64,000 nucleotides of DNA from an uncultured Acidimicrobiia bacterium (GTDB lineage: Bacteria > Acidobacteriota > Terriglobia > Versatilivoradales > Versatilivoraceae). The notes below the pieces were generated by a model. The model made no database searches. It was not told the DNA's origin and worked only from the letters and a program-made list of their open reading frames with translations. The stretch spans positions 1,568,001 to 1,632,000 of the forward strand of contig CAWBAT010000005.1 in NCBI GenBank assembly GCA_963786955.1, in the 5' to 3' direction. The position numbers and the translations under genes are program-made. Of this stretch, positions 17,242-30,049 are shown in pieces; the first letter of the stretch is position 1; every line of letters starts with the position of its first letter.

Positions 17242-20200
17242 ATGACTTCTTTTCAAAAGTCAGTGGTACGGAAGACTGGTTTCTTGTTGGCGCTTTTTCT
17301 CTGGCCTACTTCGGCACAAAGTCAGACGACTGGCCAAATTTCGGGGTGTGTGAGAGATGCCATGGGTGGGGCATTGGCCGGAGCCGAAGTAGCGGTTGTG
17401 AGCAAAACATCTACTGAAACACGCCACTATACTACCGATTCCGCAGGAAACTATTTCGTGCCACTCTTACCGCCCGGCCACTATGAGGTGGGTATTTCCG
17501 CCCGGGGTTTCGAAGGAATTAAATTCAATGATGTGTCGGTTGCGCTTTCGAAAACCAGCCTGGTCAATGCCAACCTCCAGGTGGAGTCGGTGAGTTCGTC
17601 CATCACAGTCCAGGCTGCAAACCCCTCAGTTCAGTGGGAGGGGCCGCAGCGGGGCCTCTTGGTGGATTCTCGTTCGCTCGAGTCGCTTCCTCTGGCTACG
17701 CTTAATTTCACTCAAATTCTGGCCCTCTCGCCGGGGGCGTCTGTGCCGCTTCCAGACCAAACGACAGTGGGACGAAATTCCCAGGACATCTCAGTGAACG
17801 GTGGTCGGGTTACCCAAAACAATTATCAAATCAACGGAGTGGATGCCAATACCTGGGGAACGAACACAGCAGGTCGCATTGCCGTTCCTGCCCCTGAGTC
17901 CATTTCTGAGTTTAAGGTGAATACTTCAATTTACGATGCCACATTAGGCCGTTACGGCGGGGGCAATATTCAGTTGGTTACCAAAAGCGGTGGCAACGAA
18001 CTGCATGGGACTGCCTATGCATACCTTCAAAACGAGGCGCTGAATGCCAACAATCCATTTTTGAAAGCCGCTGGTGTCGCACAGCCTCTCCTGCGACGGG
18101 ATGTCTTGGGAGGAACACTCGGCGGACCGATCCGGAAGGATCGGGCGTTTTTCCTGATCTCTTATCAAGGGGTGCGCGAAAAGAACGGGGCAACGGCCAA
18201 CAGCCTTTCGTCCAACGTACTTGTCGCGCCCTGCTGGTCGGGAGGGTGCTTGACAGACGATCGTTCAGAGCGGACACTAGTGAGCACCTTTAAGCCTTCC
18301 CTCCCGAATGGACAGCCTTTAAACTCGATCAATCCGATCGCCCTTACCCTCCTGCAGACAAGACTTCCGGACGGTCACTTCCTCATTCCAACGCCCCAAG
18401 TGGACGGACACTACTCCGGATCGGCCCCCTCGCATTACCAGGAGGACCAGTTCAATACGAATTTTGACTATCTATTCAACGAAACGAATTCGCTGGCGGT
18501 AAAATTCTTTTTTTCCAATAGCAGTTCGAATCTCACCTTGTTTTCCGGACCCAATGTGCCGGGATTTGGACCCGATCAAGAGGTCAACAACCGCTTAGCG
18601 GCATTACGATATGTTCATCTATTCAACTCCCAGGTCATCAATGAAGTGCGTATGGGGGCCAATTTCATTCCATACAACTCAATCCCGCAGGAGCCGATCA
18701 ATGACTCCGATGTAGGCATTTACAGAGCCAATGCGGATGCCAAACCGGGCCTATCGTTGATCCGTATTGCCCCCGATGCCCAGGGGATAGCCTTCGGCAC
18801 GGCTGCTTCCAATATCGACTTCGAAGACAATGAACAGGCCATGACGCTGGCAGATATCCTCTCGATTATTCATGGTAAGCACAGTCTCCGGGTGGGCGCC
18901 GAGTTCCGTGAGTACAGGAACATATTAAGAACGAGCCTGAACACCCGCGGCCAGATTGATTTCAATAACTTCAATGATTTTCTAATAGGCAGACCACGTT
19001 TGTCGGTTTTCGGAGCAGGGATTGATGGACGGGACCTGCGTGCGGCGGACTACAATTTCTTTATCCAGGACGACTGGAAGGTTTCGCCCAAGCTCACTTT
19101 GAACCTCGGGTTGCGCTATGATTTGGACTTGCCGCCTTACGACACCCGTGGCCGGATTTCCACTTTTGACCCAACGCTCTACAAACCGCGGCCCCCACTG
19201 GGCAACACGGGTGCTCCGATCGGCCCACCTGTCGGCGGGTTCGTGCAAGCCGGAAATGTGATTTCGCAATATGATTTGTCGGAAGTTCCCAACGTTAGCG
19301 CGCGGATCTTACAAAGTAATGACCCGAACAATTTCGCACCGCGCCTGGGTATTGCCTACTTGCCGTCCAATTCGGGGCGCTTGGTGGTGCGGGCGGGCTA
19401 CGGTGTTTTTTACTCTCGTCTCTCGAATCTTTACTTGGGAAGCACCATCAGGACGCCGCCATACTATGCCATCGCCAGGAGGCCTTTCCCGTCGTTTTCC
19501 GATCCTTTTTTCCCTTTGCCGTCTCAAGCGGAGTTTCCAACCTTTGTGCCGGGCCTCGCTTTGGCGAACCAGGTTTTTGATCGTAATATTCGTACGCCTT
19601 ACCTTCACCAATATAGTTTGAGCATACAGTACGAACTCGGCGCAAATCTATTGGTCGAGGCAGCCTATGTCGGCACTCGAGCCCTTAACTTATTCCGCGT
19701 CGTCGGCATCAACCAATCCCGACTGGCCAGCCCGGATCACCCGATCCTCAATGAGGTAAATGGGCAGTCCATTACTACCAACACTCCGGCGAATGCGCAA
19801 CTCCGGGCACCATTTCAGGGTGTTTCGACCAACACCTTTGGCCAGAATGAGACCACCGCGCAATCAACCTATAATGGCCTGCAAATGAGCGTCACCAGGC
19901 GGTTTTCAAAAGAAATTCAATTCCTCGCCTCGTACACCTACGCCAAGTCCATCGATAACACTGCAAGCGCGACGACGAGCGAGAATGGCGTCGCGAATGA
20001 AGTGGCTTTCTCTCCCGGTAACCAGCTCGATAATCGAGCCAATCGCGGCCTGTCAGACTTCGACCACACCCAGCGATTTGTCGGTAGCTATTTGTGGGAT
20101 CTGCCAAATCCCGGTAATTCCGCAAAATCACAGGCTAGCCGGTGGTTGCTCTCTAATTGGCAAGTTGCCGGCATCGTCGTCGCAATGTCCGGGCTGCCAA

Positions 20201-20718
20201 TTGACATTGTGGACAGCGAAGCAGGTTCTTTCTACGGACTGTCTGGCGGCAACGCTCTCGCACGGCCCAATCTCGCGCCGGGGATTAACCCACACGGCAA
20301 TGGCTTGCCCGGGTACTACTTCAATCCTTTCGCATTTGTCAGGCCTGCCGTGCGGTCCGGCCAGCCCATTCCCAGTTCTGAAGGAACTGCAGTGGCAGCG
20401 GCACTAGGTACCGACATTGGTTTTATTGGCCGTAACATCTTGCGGGGCCCTCGACAAGCAAACATAGACTTGTCAGTTGCCAAGAGCTGTCCAGTCGGTG
20501 AATCCAAGAACCTTCAATTTCGAGTTGAGTTCTTTAACCTATTGAATCAAGTTAACCTTGCCAACCCGGTGAGCAATCTCAACGCAGTGGCCTCATCGGG
20601 AGGCGCGATCGATCCGAACACCGGGCAGATTGTCGGGAATGCGGGAGATTTCGGGCGCATCAATTCGACCAGCAATAACCCAAGACTGATTCAGTTTTCG
20701 CTCAGATTTACTTTCTGA
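17242..20718 (+). CDS. TonB-dependent receptor, Oar-like, with N-terminal carboxypeptidase-regulatory-like domain
   Basis: Signal peptide, GQISG-V-D, NNYQINGVD, TKSGGNELHG, FIQDDWKV, NNFAPRLG, C-terminal PRLIQFSLRFTF. Confidence 0.92.
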   Translation: MTSFQKSVVRKTGFLLALFLWPTSAQSQTTGQISGCVRDAMGGALAGAEVAVVSKTSTETRHYTTDSAGNYFVPLLPPGHYEVGISARGFEGIKFNDVSVALSKTSLVNANLQVESVSSSITVQAANPSVQWEGPQRGLLVDSRSLESLPLATLNFTQILALSPGASVPLPDQTTVGRNSQDISVNGGRVTQNNYQINGVDANTWGTNTAGRIAVPAPESISEFKVNTSIYDATLGRYGGGNIQLVTKSGGNELHGTAYAYLQNEALNANNPFLKAAGVAQPLLRRDVLGGTLGGPIRKDRAFFLISYQGVREKNGATANSLSSNVLVAPCWSGGCLTDDRSERTLVSTFKPSLPNGQPLNSINPIALTLLQTRLPDGHFLIPTPQVDGHYSGSAPSHYQEDQFNTNFDYLFNETNSLAVKFFFSNSSSNLTLFSGPNVPGFGPDQEVNNRLAALRYVHLFNSQVINEVRMGANFIPYNSIPQEPINDSDVGIYRANADAKPGLSLIRIAPDAQGIAFGTAASNIDFEDNEQAMTLADILSIIHGKHSLRVGAEFREYRNILRTSLNTRGQIDFNNFNDFLIGRPRLSVFGAGIDGRDLRAADYNFFIQDDWKVSPKLTLNLGLRYDLDLPPYDTRGRISTFDPTLYKPRPPLGNTGAPIGPPVGGFVQAGNVISQYDLSEVPNVSARILQSNDPNNFAPRLGIAYLPSNSGRLVVRAGYGVFYSRLSNLYLGSTIRTPPYYAIARRPFPSFSDPFFPLPSQAEFPTFVPGLALANQVFDRNIRTPYLHQYSLSIQYELGANLLVEAAYVGTRALNLFRVVGINQSRLASPDHPILNEVNGQSITTNTPANAQLRAPFQGVSTNTFGQNETTAQSTYNGLQMSVTRRFSKEIQFLASYTYAKSIDNTASATTSENGVANEVAFSPGNQLDNRANRGLSDFDHTQRFVGSYLWDLPNPGNSAKSQASRWLLSNWQVAGIVVAMSGLPIDIVDSEAGSFYGLSGGNALARPNLAPGINPHGNGLPGYYFNPFAFVRPAVRSGQPIPSSEGTAVAAALGTDIGFIGRNILRGPRQANIDLSVAKSCPVGESKNLQFRVEFFNLLNQVNLANPVSNLNAVASSGGAIDPNTGQIVGNAGDFGRINSTSNNPRLIQFSLRFTF

Positions 20719-20757: not shown

Positions 20758-21387
20758 TTATTGTGACGGCGTCGGATGGGTAGGCAGGTGGGTTGAAAAA
20801 TACTGATCCAAGCTCGCCATGAATTCGTTCACGCCCCGCAGCACATTCCGGTCCAGAGCATCAACCACGGCCGGCACCTCTTTGCCGTTCACCGGTTCGT
20901 CATGGGTGTAGAAGTGCGTCCAGACCGTCGAACCGGTTTTGTTGTCGCGCAACTCCAGTTCCATCGTGACGCGGCCCACTAAGGTGCTGCCCGAAACCTC
21001 TTTGAAGTCGTAAAGCTTTCCACGGAGGCGATAGTCTCCACGAGCATTACTGCTCCAAGCATGGACTGCCCGATAGCGACCCGAACTGCGAAGTTCGCGA
21101 CCGAGAACATCCTGGATCATCTCAGTGGGGGGGCCTGCCCAGCGTTGGTATTCATAAGTGCCCATGCCATGACCATCGGAACTGTAAACGATGCGGTCTC
21201 CGCGATAGAGATCGGAGGAGGTGATGGGGCCGAGCAACAGCGTTACAGGATAGGGATGGGAATCCGCCACTGGTGTCGGGTTGCCAGGGATCGTCAGTTG
21301 ATAGTACTTGCTGGGTTTACCGGCGCCACAGCCACAGGTGAAACCGAGATACACTCCCAAGATCGAAATAGCAATTCTGTGTTTCAT
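20758..21387 (-). CDS. ABC-type transport auxiliary lipoprotein (PqiC-like)
   Basis: Lipobox-like Cys, KYYQL, YEYQRWAGPP; last gene of the MCE operon. Confidence 0.8.
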   Translation of the reverse strand: MKHRIAISILGVYLGFTCGCGAGKPSKYYQLTIPGNPTPVADSHPYPVTLLLGPITSSDLYRGDRIVYSSDGHGMGTYEYQRWAGPPTEMIQDVLGRELRSSGRYRAVHAWSSNARGDYRLRGKLYDFKEVSGSTLVGRVTMELELRDNKTGSTVWTHFYTHDEPVNGKEVPAVVDALDRNVLRGVNEFMASLDQYFSTHLPTHPTPSQ

Positions 21388-22373
21388 GGTTTCTCACCTG
21401 GCTTATGTTCATGGGAATTGGTCGCACGAATGAGCGCGTTCGGTTGAGTTTTGATCGTTGCGGTAAAATCCTTTAGATTCTCCGTAATACGCTGCATGTT
21501 GACGAGGATTTCATCGATCTTTTCAGCGTTAACATCCAGGGTCTGATCGAGCCGTGCTGTAACGTCCGTCATGTTGCTTAAGGCGCGGCGAAGCTCCAAC
21601 ACGGCCTGGCGGATGTCGGCCCGGTTTTCTCCAATCATGGAGTCGAGGTGATTCAAGGTTTGCTTCGCCTCATCGGAGGTCTTGCGAAAATCCTCGAGAA
21701 GCGGGCCTAGTCTTTGGCTAACGGCGTTGATGTTTTGAAGCGTAGACTTCACCTGAGGACGATTTTCTTCGATCATTCCACGGGTTTCTTCGATCATTCC
21801 ACGGGTGTTTGAGAGCGTGGCAGACAGGTTTGCGCGGTTTTGAGCACTCAGTAGATCGTTCACGCGCACGATCGTTTCTTTCAGTTCGGTCGCGCGACTA
21901 TTCAGAGAATGCAAGAGTTCTTGAGCTTGGGGAGCAATGGTGTTGATTTGCGAGACAAGGGCGTTGAAATCCAGGTAGTTCTCGGACGGGAGAAGAGAAT
22001 CATTGGTGGCGAGAGCGGCCTCGGAAGATCCGGGCAGAATCTCCAAATGGTTGTCTCCGAGCGGGCTCATGCTCATAATTTTCACGCGGCTATCGGTCTT
22101 GATCGGTAAATCGGATTGTACGCTGAAGGTGATGTCGAGGCGCGATGAATCCTGGGCATCGAGTCGCACTTTGTCGACGTGACCGACCTTTGGCCCGCCG
22201 GCATAACGAACCGCTGTGCCGGGCTCGATCCCGCCCGCAAAATTAAAGTAAGCATGGTAGCTGCGGGTCGTATGACCGAACAGTCCACTCATGGCGAAGA
22301 TCGTTGCAATCAACATTGCCCCGGCAATCACTACAAAGAGGCCCACCAAGGCCTGTTCACGTTTGGGTTCCAT
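21384..22373 (-). CDS. mlaD: MlaD/MCE family protein with long helical extension
   Basis: VGLFV TM anchor, AGGIEPGTAVRYAGG.KVG.V MCE domain, coiled-coil tail. Confidence 0.88.
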   Translation of the reverse strand: MEPKREQALVGLFVVIAGAMLIATIFAMSGLFGHTTRSYHAYFNFAGGIEPGTAVRYAGGPKVGHVDKVRLDAQDSSRLDITFSVQSDLPIKTDSRVKIMSMSPLGDNHLEILPGSSEAALATNDSLLPSENYLDFNALVSQINTIAPQAQELLHSLNSRATELKETIVRVNDLLSAQNRANLSATLSNTRGMIEETRGMIEENRPQVKSTLQNINAVSQRLGPLLEDFRKTSDEAKQTLNHLDSMIGENRADIRQAVLELRRALSNMTDVTARLDQTLDVNAEKIDEILVNMQRITENLKDFTATIKTQPNALIRATNSHEHKPGEKP

Positions 22374-22393
22374 CGTGCTCCCTTCTTGGCTGC

Positions 22394-23227
22394 CTATGTC
22401 TTGCCAGAACGACGTTCCTCGGTGAGCATCTGGAGATAGTCCAATTCCCTTGAAACCTCCGGCTCAGCCACCCGATCCAGAAATTGCCGCACCCGCGGCT
22501 GTGTGCTTGACCGCATCTCCGCGGTCGTGCCGATCGCTACAATATTCCCCTTATCAATGAGGACCATTCGGTCTGCAACCAAGAACGCGCTTGCCAACTC
22601 GTGGGTCACCACCAGGATGGTCATCCGAAAGGCCTGCTTTAGCTCCAGAATGAGCTGATCAATGCCAGCTGCGATGATTGGATCTAATCCGGCAGAGGGT
22701 TCGTCAAACAACAAGATCTCGGGGTCCATGGCCAGAGCCCGAGCCACTGCCGCACGTTTCTTCATACCCCCGCTGAGTTCTGAAGGGAGGTAGTATTCAA
22801 AACCCTCGAGCCCGACCTGCTCCAGCTTGAGCCGCACCATGATTTCAATGGTTGATTCTTCCAGTTTCGTATGTTCCTGGAGTGGAAGAGCGACGTTTTC
22901 CCCCACGGTCATGGAACCAAAAAGCGCTCCCCCCTGAAACGATACCCCCATTTTCTTGCGGATTTCGTCCATCTCGGCCTGCGATATGGTGGCAATATTC
23001 TTGCCTTTAATCCAAATCTCCCCCGAGCTCGGTTTTGCCAGACCCATAATCGTTCTTAACAGCGTGCTCTTCCCCGATCCTGAACCGCCTAAGATCACAA
23101 GGACCTCGCCGCGCTGGACCTCAAAGCTGACGCCGTGCAGAATTTCTCTGTCTCCGTAGCTCGCGCGGACCTCTCGCAGAGAAATCATGGAGCTTGATTC
23201 GAACGAGATGGGATCATTCTGTTCCAT
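22394..23227 (-). CDS. mlaF: MlaF/Mkl-type ABC transporter ATP-binding protein
   Basis: [33 protein letters not shown]. Confidence 0.92.
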
Positions 23228-23248
23228 CGACGATGTCCCAATGCTTTA

Positions 23249-24043
23249 TTAATCACTGACAAAATAAAATAGTGCAGTAAAGATGACATCGACCAAAATC
23301 ACAAGAAAAATGGACATGACCACAGCTCGGGTTGTCGAGCGGCCGACCTGTTCTGCACCCGCCCCCGTGGATAGCCCCTCCAAACAGCCTACTGCGGTAA
23401 TCGTAATACCAAACATCACGCTCTTGATCAAGCCGGTTGTGATGTCGCGGAGGAAGAGGGAATCGATGGAAGCTTTGATATACTGCATAAAACCGAATCC
23501 CGCTTGAGAGACGCCAAACAGTGACCCTCCCAAGATTCCCATGGAATTTGCCCAGATGGTGAGGCAGGGCAGCATGACAATCATAGCGAGGAACTTCGGG
23601 GTGACAAGGAAACGGATGGGGCTGATCGCCATCGTTTCTAAGGCATCGATTTCCTCGGTCACTTTCATGGTCCCGATCTCAGCCGCAAACGCCGAGCCGG
23701 AGCGTCCGATCACGACAATGGCGGTCACCAAAGGGCCCAGTTCTCTGGAAATGGAGACTGCGACAGCCGTCGCGACGTAACTGATCGCCCCAAATTTCCG
23801 AAGTTCGTAGGCACTCTGGAGCGCCATAATCAGTCCGATGAAAAAAGTAATCAGGGAAACGATGGGGAGTGCACGAACCCCCACATCCAGGGCTTGTGAT
23901 ACCGTGCGCTGGAAATGCAAAGGTTTCCCTTGAAACGGAGCAACCACCGTGTAGTAGGCTGCGCGTCCTCCGAGCGACGCCAGAGAGCCAATGTACGCAA
24001 GACCACTCGTTACACTTCCGCCGATTTGAGAGACCATCTGCAT
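23249..24043 (-). CDS. mlaE: MlaE family ABC permease
   Basis: RELGP, GSAFAAEIGTMKVTEEIDALETM, VGRSTTRAVV. Confidence 0.92.
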   Translation of the reverse strand: MQMVSQIGGSVTSGLAYIGSLASLGGRAAYYTVVAPFQGKPLHFQRTVSQALDVGVRALPIVSLITFFIGLIMALQSAYELRKFGAISYVATAVAVSISRELGPLVTAIVVIGRSGSAFAAEIGTMKVTEEIDALETMAISPIRFLVTPKFLAMIVMLPCLTIWANSMGILGGSLFGVSQAGFGFMQYIKASIDSLFLRDITTGLIKSVMFGITITAVGCLEGLSTGAGAEQVGRSTTRAVVMSIFLVILVDVIFTALFYFVSD

Positions 24044-24085
24044 GATGATTTTTGCCAGCTCACAACGTGCGTCACCTTGAAAATG

Positions 24086-24418
24086 TCAGGGTGCTAATGC
24101 CTGCTCTTCATTGTCGTAAACTTCGAAAATCTTCAGCAGCCGAGAAAGTTGCAAAACTTCGCGGGCAGAGGTACTCAATCCGAATAGGATGAAGCGCGTC
24201 CCGAGATCCCGAGACGCCTTAAGACCCTCGATTAAAGAGGCCACGCCGGAGCTGTCGATGTATCTTACCTTGATCAGGTTCATGACCACACGAGGCCTTC
24301 GCATTTCGCGGATTTCACGCATTAGCGCCTTCCGTAACTCCGGGGAGTTCGCTAGATCGATGTCTCCCACCACGTCTAAAATCGTGGCTTGCCCGACTTG
24401 CCGATCGGAAATCTGCAT
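24086..24418 (-). CDS. STAS domain protein (RsbV/SpoIIAA-like anti-anti-sigma factor, or MlaB-like)
   Basis: 110 aa; GDID, YIDSSGVASL with the phosphorylatable Ser; GGAG RBS. Confidence 0.88.
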   Translation of the reverse strand: MQISDRQVGQATILDVVGDIDLANSPELRKALMREIREMRRPRVVMNLIKVRYIDSSGVASLIEGLKASRDLGTRFILFGLSTSAREVLQLSRLLKIFEVYDNEEQALAP

Positions 24419-24431
24419 AGTGTCTTCTCCT

Positions 24432-25007
24432 CTAAGAATTGGGATCGAGCTTCGCGGGCTGCAGGTATTTGACCAATCGCAGCTGGTTCGTACGACCCAC
24501 ACGCGTAAACTCGACGGTGTCCATCGCTTGCCGGATGAAGTGCAACCCTAGTCCGCCAGGCCGTATTTCGTCCAATTGACGGCCACAAAGTTTGGCCGTA
24601 TCAATCGCTGGGCCCCGGTCCCACAAGAGAACCTCAAGTCCCTCGTTGAGCAGGCCATTGGAGCGGCGTTGAACCCGCCGAAAATAGAGCGCGATGGGTT
24701 TGTTCAAGTGGCCGCAATAAGCATGTCGCATCACGTTGCAAACCGCTTCGTCAACCGCTCGAGTCACCGACCGGCGCTCTGGAGCAGAGAATCCGAAGAC
24801 TTCTGTCAGACGTTCCACTGCTCCCCGGATGACGCAGAGCAAATTCGGATTGCTGCGCAGTTCGAGTTTCAGCAATAAACCGCGGTTCAGCTCGAAGTCC
24901 CGTTTCTCAGCATCACGTTCCCCTTTGGGAAATAAGTTTTCATGAACCGCCCTGGCCAAGTTTTTCTCCTGATTGTTGGAGCTTGCCGGTGATCTTCTCG
25001 GCTGCAT
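24432..25007 (-). CDS. RsbW/SpoIIAB-like Ser kinase (HATPase_c_2)
   Basis: AVDEAVCNVMRHAY, DRG, GGLGLHFIRQAMD; true start uncertain. Confidence 0.85.
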   Translation of the reverse strand: MQPRRSPASSNNQEKNLARAVHENLFPKGERDAEKRDFELNRGLLLKLELRSNPNLLCVIRGAVERLTEVFGFSAPERRSVTRAVDEAVCNVMRHAYCGHLNKPIALYFRRVQRRSNGLLNEGLEVLLWDRGPAIDTAKLCGRQLDEIRPGGLGLHFIRQAMDTVEFTRVGRTNQLRLVKYLQPAKLDPNS

Positions 25008-25009
25008 GC

Positions 25010-25160
25010 CTAAGTACTGCGTTTCATAAATATGGCCACGTATTTTGGATGGTGGAACGCGCGCTCCCGCGCGCGTTCAGCGTGCGACGGAGCGCCCGCT
25101 CCACCCCGTTTGCTGGCAGCTTGTCAATACGTCAGTGTATTCATGAAACACAGCACTCAG
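25010..25160. mobile_element. MITE/REPIN-like element with ~23-bp terminal inverted repeats and internal GTGG-type palindromes
   Basis: Left CTAAGTACTGCGTTTCATAAATA vs reverse complement of right end CTGAGTGCTGTGTTTCATGAATA; internal GGTGGAACGCGCG..CGCGCGTTC. Confidence 0.6.
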
Positions 25161-25287
25161 TGCCGCCATGCGCCAACCTTTCTGAAGTCCACGACGAACT
25201 GTGCAGACAACCCGGCTCATCGGTGCGGATTTTTTCCACTTCGTAAAGCCTCTCATTCCGGTGTGGAAGTACCGCCCACCCTTGTGT

Positions 25288-26439
25288 CTAGCAAACTTCA
25301 ACCAAAACGAGAGACACATCATCCGCGGGTAGTCCGCCGCCCCAGGCGACTACTCGATCGAGAATGCCGCACTTCATTTCGTTGAACGGCAAGAGCGCGG
25401 TCTCACGAACAAAATTCTGAACCCCTTCGACACCGAGCATTTTGCCACGAGAATCGAACACGTCAGTAATGCCGTCCGTATAAAGGACAATGCGGTCCTG
25501 TGGACGCAACTCTACATCAAGAGTCGCATCCATGTCCACCGAGTCAGTAAACGCGCCGAGGACCGCGCTGCAAGACTCGAGCAGCCGCGGCTCTTGACCC
25601 CGACGGGCTACCATCACAGGGGGATGGCCTGCTCCGGCAAAGGCCATGCGGCGCCCATCACGATCGATCCGCACCGCCGAGAGAGTGAACAGGAATCCCG
25701 TGCTGCCAATCGTATCGATCACGAAACGGTTCAACTGCTGGAGCATGTCGGCGAGCTGCAAGCCACTTCGCAAATGGGTCACGGTTTCGGTGTAGATGCG
25801 GTTGGCAACAAGCGCCGAACTGATGCCGTGGCCGGAGACATCGCACACGAGCAGATTGAGATGCTCCCCATTCCTCGGGCTCACAAGGGCAAAGTCGCCC
25901 CCGATTGCGCGCGCCGGGTGATAGAAGGTGTCGACGCGCATGCCCTCCCATACAAGCGACCTTGGTAAAAGGCTTTGTTGAACACGCGCGGCCAGGGCAA
26001 GATCTTGTTCGATTTCCATCTGGCGTTTTTCCAGCTGCGCGTTCAACGACCGCAGCTGATCTTCGGCCCGTTTTTGCTCCGAAATATCTGTGAATGTCGC
26101 CACTCCGTACTTCCGCCCGTTGAGGTCTTCGATCCTCCGCGAGCTGATGATGACAGGCAAACGGCTGCCGTCCTTTCGCGGGAGGACGAATCCATATCGG
26201 TTGTGTCCCACGCGGATCGCGATTTCGATCTGCTCCGAGAGATATCTCCATTCCTCGCAAGAATAAAATCGGGACGACTTGATCCCGATCAGGTCCTCGC
26301 GCGACATCCCCGTCATTTCGACAAACACGGAGTTGGCGAAGAGGATGTGATTGGAGTCGTCGGCAATGATGACCCCTTCGTTAAGCGCCTCCAAAACATT
26401 TCCCATCTGGCTTAGCCATTCCGGCTTTTCCATGTCCAT
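25288..26439 (-). CDS. PAS-domain PP2C/SpoIIE Ser phosphatase (RsbU/RsbP-like)
   Basis: PAS (NEGVII..N..F..MTG..RKDG), coiled coil, AARVQQSLLP, GGDF, DVSGHG, AGHPP, YTDG, DDVS. Confidence 0.9.
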   Translation of the reverse strand: MDMEKPEWLSQMGNVLEALNEGVIIADDSNHILFANSVFVEMTGMSREDLIGIKSSRFYSCEEWRYLSEQIEIAIRVGHNRYGFVLPRKDGSRLPVIISSRRIEDLNGRKYGVATFTDISEQKRAEDQLRSLNAQLEKRQMEIEQDLALAARVQQSLLPRSLVWEGMRVDTFYHPARAIGGDFALVSPRNGEHLNLLVCDVSGHGISSALVANRIYTETVTHLRSGLQLADMLQQLNRFVIDTIGSTGFLFTLSAVRIDRDGRRMAFAGAGHPPVMVARRGQEPRLLESCSAVLGAFTDSVDMDATLDVELRPQDRIVLYTDGITDVFDSRGKMLGVEGVQNFVRETALLPFNEMKCGILDRVVAWGGGLPADDVSLVLVEVC

Positions 26440-26979
26440 GTAGGTTCTCTTGGGGGATTTTTGCGCTTCCAACGTTTCAGATCCGAAGGCGTTCTTTAGC
26501 GAGCGCTCGCGAAGAAAGCCGGGAAGCAGACACAGCGACACCTTCAATGTAGAGTCATGACAACTTCTCCAGGGAGTATAGCGACACAACCCGGGGGGAA
26601 TCAACAGACATTAGAAAGATGTTCACCCAAAATCGAAATGTCCGGTTTGTAGCTTTCAGGTTTCATTGGGTTTTCCAAGGAAAGTCGATTGGGTCAGGGA
26701 ATTCCGGAATAGGGAGAAAACAATTCTGCTTCACTTGAATCGGAGGATTAGTGGCGAGGATGGCGGAACTTTCGGGAAGTAATGGGACAGATCGAAACCT
26801 TCCCAGGGGGGCCTCTAACCCGGATTTCTCACCACCAGCGCCGCATGAGGGCATGTGGCCTACAACCTCTGTAGGCCGGGTGACCCCCCCCGGCGTACTG
26901 GATTCTTCAAAATATAAGGTGTCTGTTTCCCCCCGGTGGTGAGAAATCCGGGCTAGAACGCTGCGAGAATTTCGCTGGA

Positions 26980-28380
26980 CTAGAGCGGCAGGCGCACTTG
27001 AAACACCGTGCGGCCAGGAGCTGACTCAACGCGGATCGATCCTTTATGGTTCCGGATGATGCGTTGCACGATATCGAGTCCAAGTCCGGTGCCTTCGCCC
27101 ACGGGCTTGGTAGTGAAAAACGGATCGAAAATACGGCTCTGCACGTCGGCCGCAATACCCGTTCCATTATCCACGATTTCGACCAAAATTCCGTCAGGCT
27201 CAACACAGGTTCTGATGCGGAGCAGTTTAGGCTGGCCCGGTGGCAGGTTTCCCATCGCATGGATCGCATTGTCGATGAGATTGGTCCAAATCTGGTTCAG
27301 GGCACTGCCATTGGCACGGACACGGGGCAGGTTTTGAGCAAATTGACGCGATACCTCTATGCCATGCTTGAGCTGGTGTTGAAACATGCGCAGCGTCACA
27401 TCGATACCCTGTTCGATATCCACTTCGGCGACAGGGCTCTGGTCCATATAGGAGTAAGATTTAACGGCTTGCACCAGATCGGACATGCGGCGCGAGGCCT
27501 CTTCCAACTCGCGCGTGAGGCAGAGGATCTCGAAGTCGGCAACCAGGAGGCGGAGTCCCAGCGTGAGGACTTCAGTGGAGATAAGTGAAGTAAGGGGTTG
27601 GATCTTCTCGGCAGTAACCTGGGCATCTACAAGTCCGGAGGCTAGTTCGCCCGGGAGACCTTTGGCTTGGAGCCAGTCGGCCAAGTCGGATTCGAGATCA
27701 GCCCGCTCGAGGGCGTCGATTTTTCCGGGCGTGGTGGCGCATTCGGTCAAGTTTTGAGTGACCTCAGACATGATCTCGCGGGCCCGATCGGGAAGAACAT
27801 TGCCAAGCATGGCGATGGCGTATTTGCGGCGCTCGGTGAGCACTTCACGCAAGCGGGCCGACGAACGAACGGCAGCCGAGGCAGGGTTGTTGAGTTCGTG
27901 CGCAAGACCGGCGGCGAGTTTACCTAAGGAGAGAAGTCGGTTCGAGCTTTCTTCCATGCGGGTGAACACACGCGTGCGTTCCGTCATCTCAGATACGAGC
28001 CTTTGGGCGAGAATGGGCGCCCGATAGACGAGTTCGCGAAGAAGAGAGGCGTCCATGGTGCCAACTTTGGTCGGCTGCACGGCCCATCCGCGGACGCTCG
28101 ATGTTTTCATGCGAGAGAAAGGCAGGACTCCCGTGGCCCGGCCGGCGGTGACCACGATAATCTCGTCAAGCCCAGTGGGCCGGAAATGCATCTCCCCCTC
28201 AAGAACGATAATGAAATCCCTGACCGGGTCACCTTCCCGCAACATGACGTCGCCGGATTCGTAGCGGCGTACTTCCAATTGGCTGGCGATCCACTCAACC
28301 GCCTCCAAGCTCTCGTCGTTGAAGAGTGGAAATTGGAGCAGTTCTTCAGCAGTGACCCTTTCGGGAGCAGATTGCGGCAT
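26980..28380 (-). CDS. Histidine kinase with N-terminal cNMP-binding-like domain
   Basis: FPLF..REGDP..F.IVLEG cNMP-like fold; LAHELNNP H-box, NLIDNA, DNGTG, FDPFFTTK, GTGLGL. Confidence 0.9.
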   Translation of the reverse strand: MPQSAPERVTAEELLQFPLFNDESLEAVEWIASQLEVRRYESGDVMLREGDPVRDFIIVLEGEMHFRPTGLDEIIVVTAGRATGVLPFSRMKTSSVRGWAVQPTKVGTMDASLLRELVYRAPILAQRLVSEMTERTRVFTRMEESSNRLLSLGKLAAGLAHELNNPASAAVRSSARLREVLTERRKYAIAMLGNVLPDRAREIMSEVTQNLTECATTPGKIDALERADLESDLADWLQAKGLPGELASGLVDAQVTAEKIQPLTSLISTEVLTLGLRLLVADFEILCLTRELEEASRRMSDLVQAVKSYSYMDQSPVAEVDIEQGIDVTLRMFQHQLKHGIEVSRQFAQNLPRVRANGSALNQIWTNLIDNAIHAMGNLPPGQPKLLRIRTCVEPDGILVEIVDNGTGIAADVQSRIFDPFFTTKPVGEGTGLGLDIVQRIIRNHKGSIRVESAPGRTVFQVRLPL

Positions 28381-28390
28381 GAGATTCTCT

Positions 28391-30049
28391 CTATCGATTG
28401 CGCATGTATTGGCGGACAAAGTAAAGCACGATGGAGCCTTCCCCCACGCTATTGGCGACGCGGCGAATGGCTCCATCCCGGACGTCACCAACGGCGAAGA
28501 CGCCGGGCACGCTGGTTTCCAGCAGATAGGGATCGCGAGCGAGGTTCCAACCAGCCGGGCGCTTGCCGCCATTCAATAGATTGGGACCGGTTACAAGGAA
28601 GCCCTTGCTGTCACGGCATACGATGCCATCCAACCATTGCGTATGCGGTTCGGCTCCAATAAAAATAAAGAGTGCCGACGCGGGCAGCTTTTCCGTAGTT
28701 TGGCTGTCATGGTGGTGGACAGTGATTTCTTCGAGACGATCGCCACCGCTCACTTCAATGACTTCGGAGTTGGGGATGACCGAGATTTTCGGAAGGGTGT
28801 GGATCCGCTCGACGAGGTAGTGAGACATCGATTTCGACAAGGATTCGCCACGAACGATCATTTTGATGGAGCGCGCGACTTCGGAGAAATGGACCGCGGA
28901 CTGGCCGGCGGAATTGGCTCCTCCGACGATGTAGACGTCCTCGTCTTTACAGGACGAGTATTCGGTGATCGCCGCTCCATAGTAAACACCCGCGCCGGTA
29001 AGCCGTTCCATGCCGGGGACGTCGAGCCGCCGCCACTGGACTCCGGCGGCGATGACGACGCTGTGCGCCGCCAGTTCCTGACCGTTGGATAGCTTGATGA
29101 CGCGATACTCGCCTTCGATGAGGAGACCCACGGCATCGGCGGGTGCGAGGACTTCGGTCCCGAACCGGCGCACTTGGGCGACACCGCGGCGGGCGAGATC
29201 CGCGCCGCTCAGACCGGAGGGAAACCCGAGATAATTTTCGATGCGTGAACTGAGGCCGGCCTGACCCCCCGCGGCTTCTCGCTCCACGAGAACCGTCTTC
29301 AGACCCTCGGTGCTGCAATACAGAGCGCATGCGAGTCCGGCGGGTCCAGCTCCGACCACAATGACATCATAGAAACGGCGGCTAGGGGTCGAGACGAGCC
29401 CCAATTTTTCGGCTACCTGCGATAGCTCGGGGCGTTCCAGGATAGACCCATCCGGGAAAATGACGACCGGCATCACCATTGTCTTCTCGCCGAGAGCTGC
29501 CTGGACCCGCGGAACGGAAATACCATCGGGTTCGATCCAGCGATAGGGAACCTGGCTTTTGGCGAGAAAATCCTTGAGGCGGTGTGTTTCAGGCGCCCAA
29601 CGGGTGCCGACAACGTAAACTCCGTCGAATGATTCCTGTTGGCCGGCTTGCCAGTCTTCGAGTTGGTCGGAGAGTACCGGATAGAGATTTTGTTCCGGCG
29701 GTTCCCAAGGCTTCAGCAGGTAGTGATTGAGTTTGACTTTGTTGATCGCGTCGATGGCCGCAGCGGAGTCTGCATAGGCGGTGAGCAACACGCGGCGGGC
29801 TTCCGGCTGCAATGTGATGACCGCTTGAAGAAACTCGGTGCCATTCATCTGCGGCATTCGCTGATCCACGAGGAAGAGCGCAACCCGGTCGCCGCGCGCT
29901 GTCAACTGACGGACGATGCCGATTCCCTTCTGCGCCGAATCGACCGCAAGGATGCGATAGTTCGGAGCGAACTTTATTTTAAGATCGCGCTCCACGGCAT
30001 GCAGCACGGAATCATCGTCGTCAATCGCTAGGATGTAGGGCTTCTTCAT
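28391..30049 (-). CDS. Response-regulator receiver fused to thioredoxin reductase-like FAD oxidoreductase
   Basis: ILAIDDD, DQRMP, KPW receiver; GAGPAG, IENYLGFP, GGANSAGQ, FAVGD; CxxC absent (GVYYGAAITE). Confidence 0.9.
   Translation of the reverse strand: MKKPYILAIDDDDSVLHAVERDLKIKFAPNYRILAVDSAQKGIGIVRQLTARGDRVALFLVDQRMPQMNGTEFLQAVITLQPEARRVLLTAYADSAAAIDAINKVKLNHYLLKPWEPPEQNLYPVLSDQLEDWQAGQQESFDGVYVVGTRWAPETHRLKDFLAKSQVPYRWIEPDGISVPRVQAALGEKTMVMPVVIFPDGSILERPELSQVAEKLGLVSTPSRRFYDVIVVGAGPAGLACALYCSTEGLKTVLVEREAAGGQAGLSSRIENYLGFPSGLSGADLARRGVAQVRRFGTEVLAPADAVGLLIEGEYRVIKLSNGQELAAHSVVIAAGVQWRRLDVPGMERLTGAGVYYGAAITEYSSCKDEDVYIVGGANSAGQSAVHFSEVARSIKMIVRGESLSKSMSHYLVERIHTLPKISVIPNSEVIEVSGGDRLEEITVHHHDSQTTEKLPASALFIFIGAEPHTQWLDGIVCRDSKGFLVTGPNLLNGGKRPAGWNLARDPYLLETSVPGVFAVGDVRDGAIRRVANSVGEGSIVLYFVRQYMRNR

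Follow-up and report, generated by a model that had tools for sequence, protein, structure and literature searches.

What does a partner-switching module control when it is encoded directly ahead of a lipid transporter? The question is raised by seven genes in a stretch of 64,000 nucleotides (the window; C5:1568001-1632000, on contig CAWBAT010000005.1 of assembly GCA_963786955.1) from an uncultured bacterium of the phylum Acidobacteriota, whose genome comprises 5.65 Mb in 9 contigs and is 93.3% complete. All seven lie on the minus strand, in the order PAS-PP2C phosphatase, RsbW-like kinase, STAS protein, MlaE, MlaF, long MlaD and PqiC-like lipoprotein (Table 1), as an earlier note made from the sequence had described them; all have Pfam support. 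The phosphatase and kinase genes are separated by 280 bp, and the following intervals measure 13 bp (kinase-STAS), 42 bp (STAS-MlaE), 21 bp (MlaE-MlaF), 20 bp (MlaF-MlaD) and -4 bp (MlaD-lipoprotein). The spacing of 45 bp or less that the note had given from the kinase to the lipoprotein gene thus stands, as does its observation that the STAS protein keeps a DSSG motif (D55-S56-S57-G58).

Building on the established gene content and spacing, the intact catalytic and acceptor motifs, the deeply conserved linkage and the architecture of the transporter, we propose, with a probability of about 0.6, that the STAS protein is a phosphorylation-switched equivalent of MlaB on an Mla-type transporter; its binding to MlaF and its phosphorylation at Ser56 are the parts that we infer. 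According to this model, the genes from the kinase to the PqiC-like lipoprotein would form one operon, encoding an envelope-spanning ATP-binding cassette (ABC) transporter for lipids that is of the Mla-Pqi chimeric (Mpc) type and has a post-translational switch of its own, and the STAS protein would be the cytoplasmic MlaB-equivalent subunit of this transporter. Unphosphorylated STAS would bind MlaF via the surface around helix a2 and support assembly or activity of the ATPase. The RsbW-like kinase would bind the same surface and phosphorylate Ser56, and phospho-Ser56 would release STAS from MlaF, so that transport would be turned down. A sensor-PP2C, in most lineages a GAF-PP2C, would strip the phosphate once its sensor domain is triggered; in the window's genome this phosphatase may be the neighbouring PAS-PP2C, a GAF-GAF-PP2C encoded at C5:1223103, or both. 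The partner in such a switch would be an ABC ATPase and not a sigma factor. Its direction (unphosphorylated, bound and active) is modelled on Escherichia coli MlaB, in which, according to the available excerpts of Kolich et al. (PMC7367683), Thr52 forms the centre of the MlaF interface, a T52E exchange weakens binding, and MlaF depends on MlaB to remain on the complex. The chances seem to us about level for a broader form of the proposal, namely that there is a class of gated envelope lipid transporters, spread over at least 10 phyla, in which a kinase of the RsbW type and a PP2C with a GAF or PAS domain toggle the serine phosphorylation of a MlaB-equivalent STAS protein whose partner is MlaF rather than a sigma factor.

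The core of the proposal is supported because the synteny is conserved across phyla and because STAS stays with the Mla genes where clusters have been rearranged. In the gene-neighbourhood survey that the earlier note had suggested, an alignment of three kinases (A1) was scanned against one genome per GTDB species (185,579 genomes), and the flanks of the best 80 of 557 confirmed relatives were searched by tblastn with the window's seven proteins. A kinase-STAS-MlaE tandem on one strand was found for 50 of these 80 kinases, adjacent but rearranged Mla genes for three, and a contig end directly after STAS for two. Record titles name 10 phyla for the 50 tandem loci: Nitrospirota (9), Thermodesulfobacteriota (8), Planctomycetota (7), Pseudomonadota (7), Acidobacteriota (4), Bacteroidota (2), Myxococcota (2), Verrucomicrobiota (2), Methylomirabilota (1) and Omnitrophota (1), with 7 titles lacking a phylum; these counts rest on the titles, and labels of metagenome-assembled genomes can be wrong. 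The rows labelled 'Verrucomicrobiia' and 'Methylomirabilota' that are 57-58% identical to the window kinase are probably Acidobacteriota. The tandem persists across many phyla at kinase identities of 29-42%. Among 201 sampled genomes from the window's own phylum (tallies include G024, G049 and G152, which are flagged as unpublished), kinase relatives were distant only, with a best identity of 38%, and kinase-STAS-MlaE-MlaF occurred in 3 of the 30 best loci, the window's own included; the other two, in G022 and G003 of a single family, have the whole six-gene cassette, the lipoprotein gene included. A second, independent survey started from the STAS protein (alignment A3) and covered 80 loci on metagenome contigs at 66-83% identity. 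Here the kinase lies directly upstream in 64/74 evaluable loci and MlaE directly downstream in 68/70. That all 80 STAS proteins of this set carry DSSG is by construction, the scan pattern having contained DSSG, and we do not count it as evidence.

Where the order of genes has changed, STAS remains with the transporter. In 3/3 rearranged loci (L065, L085 and L086) it lies inside the Mla operon and the kinase apart. L065 reads mlaF-mlaE-mlaD(145 aa)-STAS-mlaC and L085 mlaF-mlaE-mlaD-STAS-mlaA-mlaC, each with a divergent kinase of the window's kinase family; both are canonical Mla operons with STAS at the position of MlaB. A quick MlaE tree of 62 rows, from which 12 near-duplicate cassette rows were excluded, is divided by a split with a starred support of 100. 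One side comprises 39 cassette MlaE from all phyla, the window's included, together with 3 similar systems; the other comprises 18 plain acidobacterial MlaE, the genome's own paralogue among them, and the two canonical ones. Because of this split, the kinase appears to be attached to two different Mla subfamilies. The paralogue belongs to the second of the genome's two MlaE loci (on C8), which consists of mlaE-mlaF-mlaD with neither STAS nor kinase. The quick kinase tree (80 rows, comprising 77 loci, the window, G022 and G003; L073, L079 and L101 were excluded for stops or frameshifts) requires 3 changes of the Mla label.

The acceptor motif goes with the kinase. DSSG is present in 49/49 kinase-linked STAS proteins, all retrieved via the kinase. 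In six loci of the phylum sample, the 3 similar systems among them, a STAS gene lies directly upstream of MlaE and a kinase is absent within 1.5-3 kb; the acceptor loop is D-T-x-x in 6/6 cases, or in 5/5 if L222, from genome G152, is left out. The coupling of DSSG to the kinase, the canonical mlaFED-STAS-mlaC operons with an adjacent kinase and a natural STAS-MlaE fusion in Brucella all lend support to the core of our proposal. Gene calls that join neighbouring proteins were seen among 13 longer STAS relatives, 7 of which combine kinase and STAS and 2 (346-355 aa) STAS and MlaE; most are singletons and some may be calling artefacts.

The best solved relative of the kinase is Bacillus subtilis RsbW (6m36_A, 2e-5), and D70, E71 and N75 of the N-box, D114 of G1 and G135, G136 and G138 of G2 are invariant in 31 cassette kinases. 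Among 12 HATPase_c_2 matches in the genome only two are RsbW-like, the others being parts of long histidine kinases. The second RsbW-like kinase, at C5:1425083 (L002:6072-6920), is receiver-fused (Response_reg and HATPase_c_2), and no STAS gene was found among its neighbours scanned with Pfam. The AlphaFold2 model of the STAS protein (pLDDT 95.1) displays the complete b1-b2-a1-b3-a2-b4-a3-b5-a4 topology with helix a2 at residues 56-72, and Ser56 aligns with the position at which the SpoIIAA chain 1th8_B has Ser and the variant chain 1tid_B has Ala. In 7 gammaproteobacterial loci (L093:3234-5414, L113:1299-3479, L081, L084, L095, L098 and L109) a single open reading frame (ORF) of ~727 residues directly upstream of STAS-MlaE joins GAF, PP2C and the RsbW-like kinase behind an N-terminal region; two full 727-residue examples were confirmed with Pfam. 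As kinase and phosphatase are covalently joined in these proteins, STAS is the only free output component.

The transporter is of the Mpc type. Judged by its sequence, the window's ATPase is a true MlaF, matching Acinetobacter baumannii MlaF (7d06_B, 5.9e-65, aligned to query residue 271) and E. coli MlaF (6xbd_I, 9e-61); in its C-terminal tail, Y264 is invariant in 29 cassette MlaF. The AlphaFold2 monomer of MlaD is confident for a transmembrane helix (3-28) and an MCE barrel (36-128), which is its one MCE domain. The helices 136-314 (~180 residues) have a pLDDT under 50, as expected for a monomer, and here the secondary structure alone was used. MlaC (PF05494) and MlaA (PF04333) gave 0 matches in the genome at its 93.3% completeness. 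The N-terminus of the PqiC-like lipoprotein, MKHRIAISILGVYLGFTCGC, contains a lipobox-like Cys. According to the accessible portion of Lannoy et al. 2025 (PMC12436622), the Mpc system of Brucella abortus consists of MpcE with an N-terminal MlaB-like STAS domain, MpcF, a 331-residue MpcD needle and the PqiC-like MpcA, and has no MlaC. The parts list of the window is the same, with an MlaD of 329 residues against 331, a long helical extension in both and the PqiC-like gene last. In Brucella, however, STAS is fused to MpcE, whereas in the window a stop codon and a 42-bp gap make it a separate gene, and that portion of the paper mentions neither a kinase nor a phosphatase. The likeness is one of architecture and, as no Hyphomicrobiales sequence is in our trees, is not a statement of orthology.

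In comparison with the MlaFEDB complexes of E. coli, A. baumannii and Pseudomonas aeruginosa, the window shares homologous MlaE, MlaF and MlaD, a small STAS protein in the operon and, as far as the excerpts of PMC7367683 go, a hydroxyl residue at the position of MlaB Thr52. It differs by a longer, SpoIIAA-type STAS with b5 and a4 (E. coli MlaB chains of solved structure are 94-95 residues long), by DSSG in place of D-T, by a dedicated co-encoded kinase, by the long MlaD and by the lack of MlaC and MlaA among the genome's matches. With RsbU-RsbV-RsbW and SpoIIE-SpoIIAA-SpoIIAB of B. subtilis it has in common the motifs and folds of a PP2C, a DSSG-type STAS and a GHKL serine kinase, but the module lacks a sigma gene at the locus and lies inside a transporter operon, and the proposed target of STAS is an ABC ATPase. 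A precedent for a non-sigma target is SypE-SypA of Vibrio fischeri, where, according to the available part of a review, the unphosphorylated STAS is the active output and kinase and phosphatase may reside on a single polypeptide, which resembles the GAF-PP2C-kinase fusions. In that account SypA, part of a system that regulates biofilm genes, has no known target, whereas here the genomic context points to MlaF as a candidate. The known kinds are thus partner switching with a non-sigma output and MlaF regulated by MlaB, and the window's cassette is a variant of both. None of the literature matches listed, as far as their available text goes and with subscription literature outside the scope, linked partner switching, an RsbW-type kinase or a PP2C with MlaE or MlaF, and a 2021 review of STAS-only proteins contains neither 'Mla' nor 'ABC transporter'.

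Several observations weigh against this reading; they concern the STAS protein, the kinase, the phosphatase and a sigma factor. The STAS protein is closest in sequence and fold to anti-anti-sigma factors and further from MlaB. Its sequence matches TM1442 (6e-14), SpoIIAA (3e-7) and, from the P. aeruginosa Mla complex, a MlaB-type chain, 7ch8_K (3.9e-4). In fold it comes closest to TM1442, to SpoIIAA in complex with SpoIIAB and to RsbV in complex with RsbW (TMq 0.84-0.90), and E. coli MlaB appears at ranks 38 and 43 (TMq 0.54-0.62). The model also retains b5 (99-101) and a4 (104-108), the fifth strand and last helix that MlaB lacks according to the excerpts of Kolich et al. (PMC7367683). Because of these elements and the lower fold similarity to MlaB, we do not class the protein as an orthologue of E. 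coli MlaB; it is a STAS of the kinase-substrate type in the genomic place of MlaB. The MlaB-like, kinase-controlled STAS of the earlier note thus keeps its support from the conserved synteny and from the position of the gene, but the protein itself is of the anti-anti-sigma type.

As to the kinase, 25 of the best 80 relatives have no Mla gene within 5 kb. In the kinase tree, 18 non-Mla kinases form one clade (starred support 98) and 5 more a verrucomicrobial group. The 18-kinase sister clade (L087-L114; Calditrichota, Ignavibacteriota and Bacteroidota) has between one and four PP2C genes, but no Mla genes, in its flanks. Furthermore, the kinase profile search found no kinase in 10/74 evaluable metagenomic relatives, which nevertheless keep DSSG and the transporter, and because of these loci we conclude that loss of the kinase need not entail loss of DSSG. 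L142, L159, L170 and L180 are natural kinase-less variants with a PP2C-STAS spacing of at most 182 bp and intact STAS (DSSG) and transporter genes; in L157:2550-2804 the kinase ORF is reduced to an N-terminal leader, again with STAS (DSSG) and the transporter genes intact.

The phosphatase calls for a revision of the earlier note, which had counted the PAS-PP2C as part of the module. Its metal-binding PP2C motifs GGDF, DVSGHG, TDG and the C-terminal DD are all present. A PP2C gene lies directly upstream of the kinase in 34/50 tandem loci; in the 12/12 sampled from 36 cassette PP2C genes it is a GAF-PP2C. In a tree of PP2C catalytic domains (46 rows, comprising 12 from the genome itself, 19 of the 36 cassette genes and 15 from non-Mla loci), the window's domain falls outside the starred group of cassette GAF-PP2Cs and is not orthologous to the usual phosphatase, whereas the genome's own GAF-GAF-PP2C at C5:1223103, ~370 kb away, falls inside it. 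Orthologues of the window's PAS-PP2C (57-66% identity) precede the cassette in 16/80 metagenomic loci, or in 7/35 of those with at least 3 kb of upstream sequence, and are absent from the other 28/35; tblastn found none in L035-L040, and L036, a close genome relative with annotated flanks, has no PP2C beside the cassette, its neighbours being a GH15 hydrolase and an AcrB gene. Chance adjacency is nonetheless unlikely, because an arrangement conserved in 16/80 loci is set against only ~14 PP2C genes in 5.65 Mb. The PAS-PP2C, which does adjoin the cassette in a sub-lineage, may thus be a lineage-specific second or replacement phosphatase. The idea that it is the ancestral cassette phosphatase is ruled out by the GAF-PP2C in 12/12 and by its place in the tree. 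The 280-bp gap before the kinase contains a dispersed repeat: blastn-short gave 35 genome matches, itself included, mostly over query positions 44-99 (a 55-60-bp segment), which amounts to ~30 further copies, one of them a 108-bp copy of 96% identity on C6. In a DNA metagenome the depth is increased at this gap, one base is inserted and one deleted, and there is a joint of 190 bases. Many relatives carry a gene for a ~320-residue secreted protein with a signal-peptide-like N-terminus between PAS-PP2C and kinase or directly upstream of the kinase (L156:2561-3529 and ~20 other metagenomic loci, such as L152, L157, L165 and L181), of which tblastn (1e-5) found no homologue in the window's genome. 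In the relatives with the PAS-PP2C it usually stands between that gene and the kinase, where the window has the gap with its hairpin.

The closest contender, which we regard as unlikely, is an ordinary partner-switching module, with the kinase acting as anti-sigma factor for a sigma factor encoded elsewhere (in relatives perhaps the one ahead of the PAS-PP2C), STAS as its antagonist and the transporter as co-transcribed or co-regulated envelope-stress cargo. The affinities of STAS and kinase to SpoIIAA/RsbV and RsbW described above speak for it, as does the label 'anti-sigma B factor antagonist' that the source databases attach to close STAS relatives. The genome has 18 Sigma70_r2 matches, although all of these lie outside C5:1568001-1632000, the nearest on the contig at 1039786. 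A profile built from the 18, which recovered 2/2 positive controls, found no sigma-70 r2 in the 64-kb window, and a profile search found none in 82 cross-phylum cassette or kinase loci. What favours this alternative further, and tells against ours, is a co-oriented gene for an extracytoplasmic function (ECF) sigma factor that immediately precedes the PAS-PP2C in 7/7 relatives with enough upstream sequence (L156:518-1318, L142, L152, L159, L164, L180 and L181). Because of these relatives, the earlier note's statement that no sigma factor is nearby is true of the window, but not of the whole lineage. The ECF sigma factor follows the PP2C and not the kinase, however, and has no orthologue in the window's genome, where the best match, located elsewhere, is 32% identical. 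As the partner of the kinase it was rejected for its absence from this genome and from the cross-phylum cassette. RsbW-type kinases, moreover, are known to hold group-3 sigma factors rather than ECF ones. STAS itself stays with the Mla genes in 3/3 rearranged loci and takes the place of MlaB in the canonical operons, and kinase-less transporters of the same subfamily retain it upstream of MlaE. An anti-sigma role of the kinase is thus weakened because the 82 loci lack a sigma factor, STAS stays with the transporter and PP2C and kinase occur as covalent fusions.

A second alternative, rather improbable in our view, inverts the roles. The kinase would bind and inhibit MlaF or the transporter as an 'anti-ATPase', and unphosphorylated STAS would relieve the block by sequestering the kinase. 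The canonical logic of RsbW and SpoIIAB would thereby be retained, with MlaF in place of the sigma factor, and the linkage evidence fits this arrangement as well as it fits a STAS subunit on MlaF. It is harder to reconcile with the kinase-less members of the subfamily, which keep STAS beside MlaE, and with the gammaproteobacterial kinase, which is fused to its own phosphatase. The accessible text on Brucella likewise describes STAS, not a kinase, fused to MlaE (PMC12436622), and E. coli MlaB binds MlaF directly, according to the excerpts of PMC7367683.

That STAS is a constitutive, structural MlaB-like subunit, with kinase and PP2C acting on other substrates and their adjacency due to shared transcription or chance, is very unlikely: the absence of the kinase from 10/74 close relatives and the restriction of the nearby PAS-PP2C to a sub-lineage would agree with it, yet the tandem is kept at 29-42% kinase identity in many phyla, DSSG is invariant with the kinase and D-T-x-x without it, and one of only 2 RsbW-like kinases in the genome lies 13 bp from STAS. 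Chance adjacency of the kinase, STAS and Mla genes is ruled out because the arrangement is conserved in 50/80, 64/74 and 68/70 cases.

We return to the proposed phosphorylation-switched STAS subunit and to the locus that would encode it (Table 1). The PAS-PP2C frame is open up to 26604 (25288..26604), with ATG 26439 as its likely start, and for the kinase TTG 24959, preceded by AGGAGA, is the likelier start. In three metatranscriptome libraries, which come from two studies, contigs that resemble the window at 90-99% span the kinase/STAS, STAS/MlaE, MlaE/MlaF and MlaF/MlaD junctions; they are only compatible with co-transcription, because contigs cannot show a single transcript and the libraries may contain DNA. 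The PP2C-kinase gap has almost no RNA-contig cover, which proves nothing on transcription. Promoter-like sites (6 against 3.8 expected) and terminator-like sites (9 against 8.4 expected) are uninformative on the limits of the operon.

Table 1. Positions of the locus features, counted from the first letter of the window
Feature	Position	Strand	Match or detail
PAS-PP2C serine phosphatase, candidate lineage-specific STAS phosphatase	25288..26439	-	Pfam SpoIIE/PP2C 7.4e-36, PAS_9 7.5e-13
PP2C-kinase gap, 280 bp	25008..25287	.	GC-rich hairpin ~25055..25078 within dispersed repeat like repetitive extragenic palindromes (REP-like), ~25051..25106
RsbW/SpoIIAB-like serine kinase	24432..25007	-	HATPase_c_2 (PF13581) 4.4e-19
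STAS protein (110 aa; fold of the SpoIIAA type), putative MlaB equivalent and substrate of the kinase	24086..24418	-	PF01740 1.3e-17
Ser56 codon in D55-S56-S57-G58, predicted phospho-acceptor, N-terminus of helix a2	24251..24253	-	
MlaE-family ABC permease	23249..24043	-	PF02405 1.2e-77
MlaF-family ABC ATPase with C-terminal extension	22394..23227	-	ABC_tran 7.9e-35
Long MlaD, 329 aa	21384..22373	-	PF02470 3.9e-15
PqiC-like outer-membrane lipoprotein, ABC_trans_aux	20758..21387	-	PF03886 7e-17; 4-bp overlap with mlaD

Upstream of the PP2C, on the minus strand, the ORFs 26980..28572 and 28391..30049, which overlap by 182 bp, encode two proteins: a histidine kinase that carries a cyclic-nucleotide-binding domain, and a thioredoxin-reductase-like flavoprotein with a fused receiver domain. 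No homologue of the one or the other turned up beside the cassette in the close relatives L035-L040, L058 and L079. At the other end, a plus-strand gene (17242..20718) points towards the end of the cassette; it encodes a 1158-residue outer-membrane beta-barrel protein (OMP_b-brl_4 1.3e-186) that has a CarboxypepD_reg N-domain. Close genome relatives do not keep this gene beside the cassette, and L172 has one weak match of 25%.

Post-translational regulation of MCE/Mla lipid transporters is unknown, and phosphoregulation of MlaB is left as an open question, with no known kinase, in the excerpts of PMC7367683. The cassette described here places a natural kinase, usually together with a phosphatase, beside a STAS protein that occupies the position of MlaB and carries a canonical acceptor serine, and it does so in many phyla and in two transporter subfamilies; the hypothesis can be tested with a few purified proteins. 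If it holds, it would answer how the activity of MlaB is regulated and would carry partner switching beyond transcription into membrane transport. Lipid traffic between the inner membrane and the outer one would then be under signal-dependent control on the scale of seconds, which would bear on outer-membrane homeostasis and on envelope-stress responses outside the model Proteobacteria.

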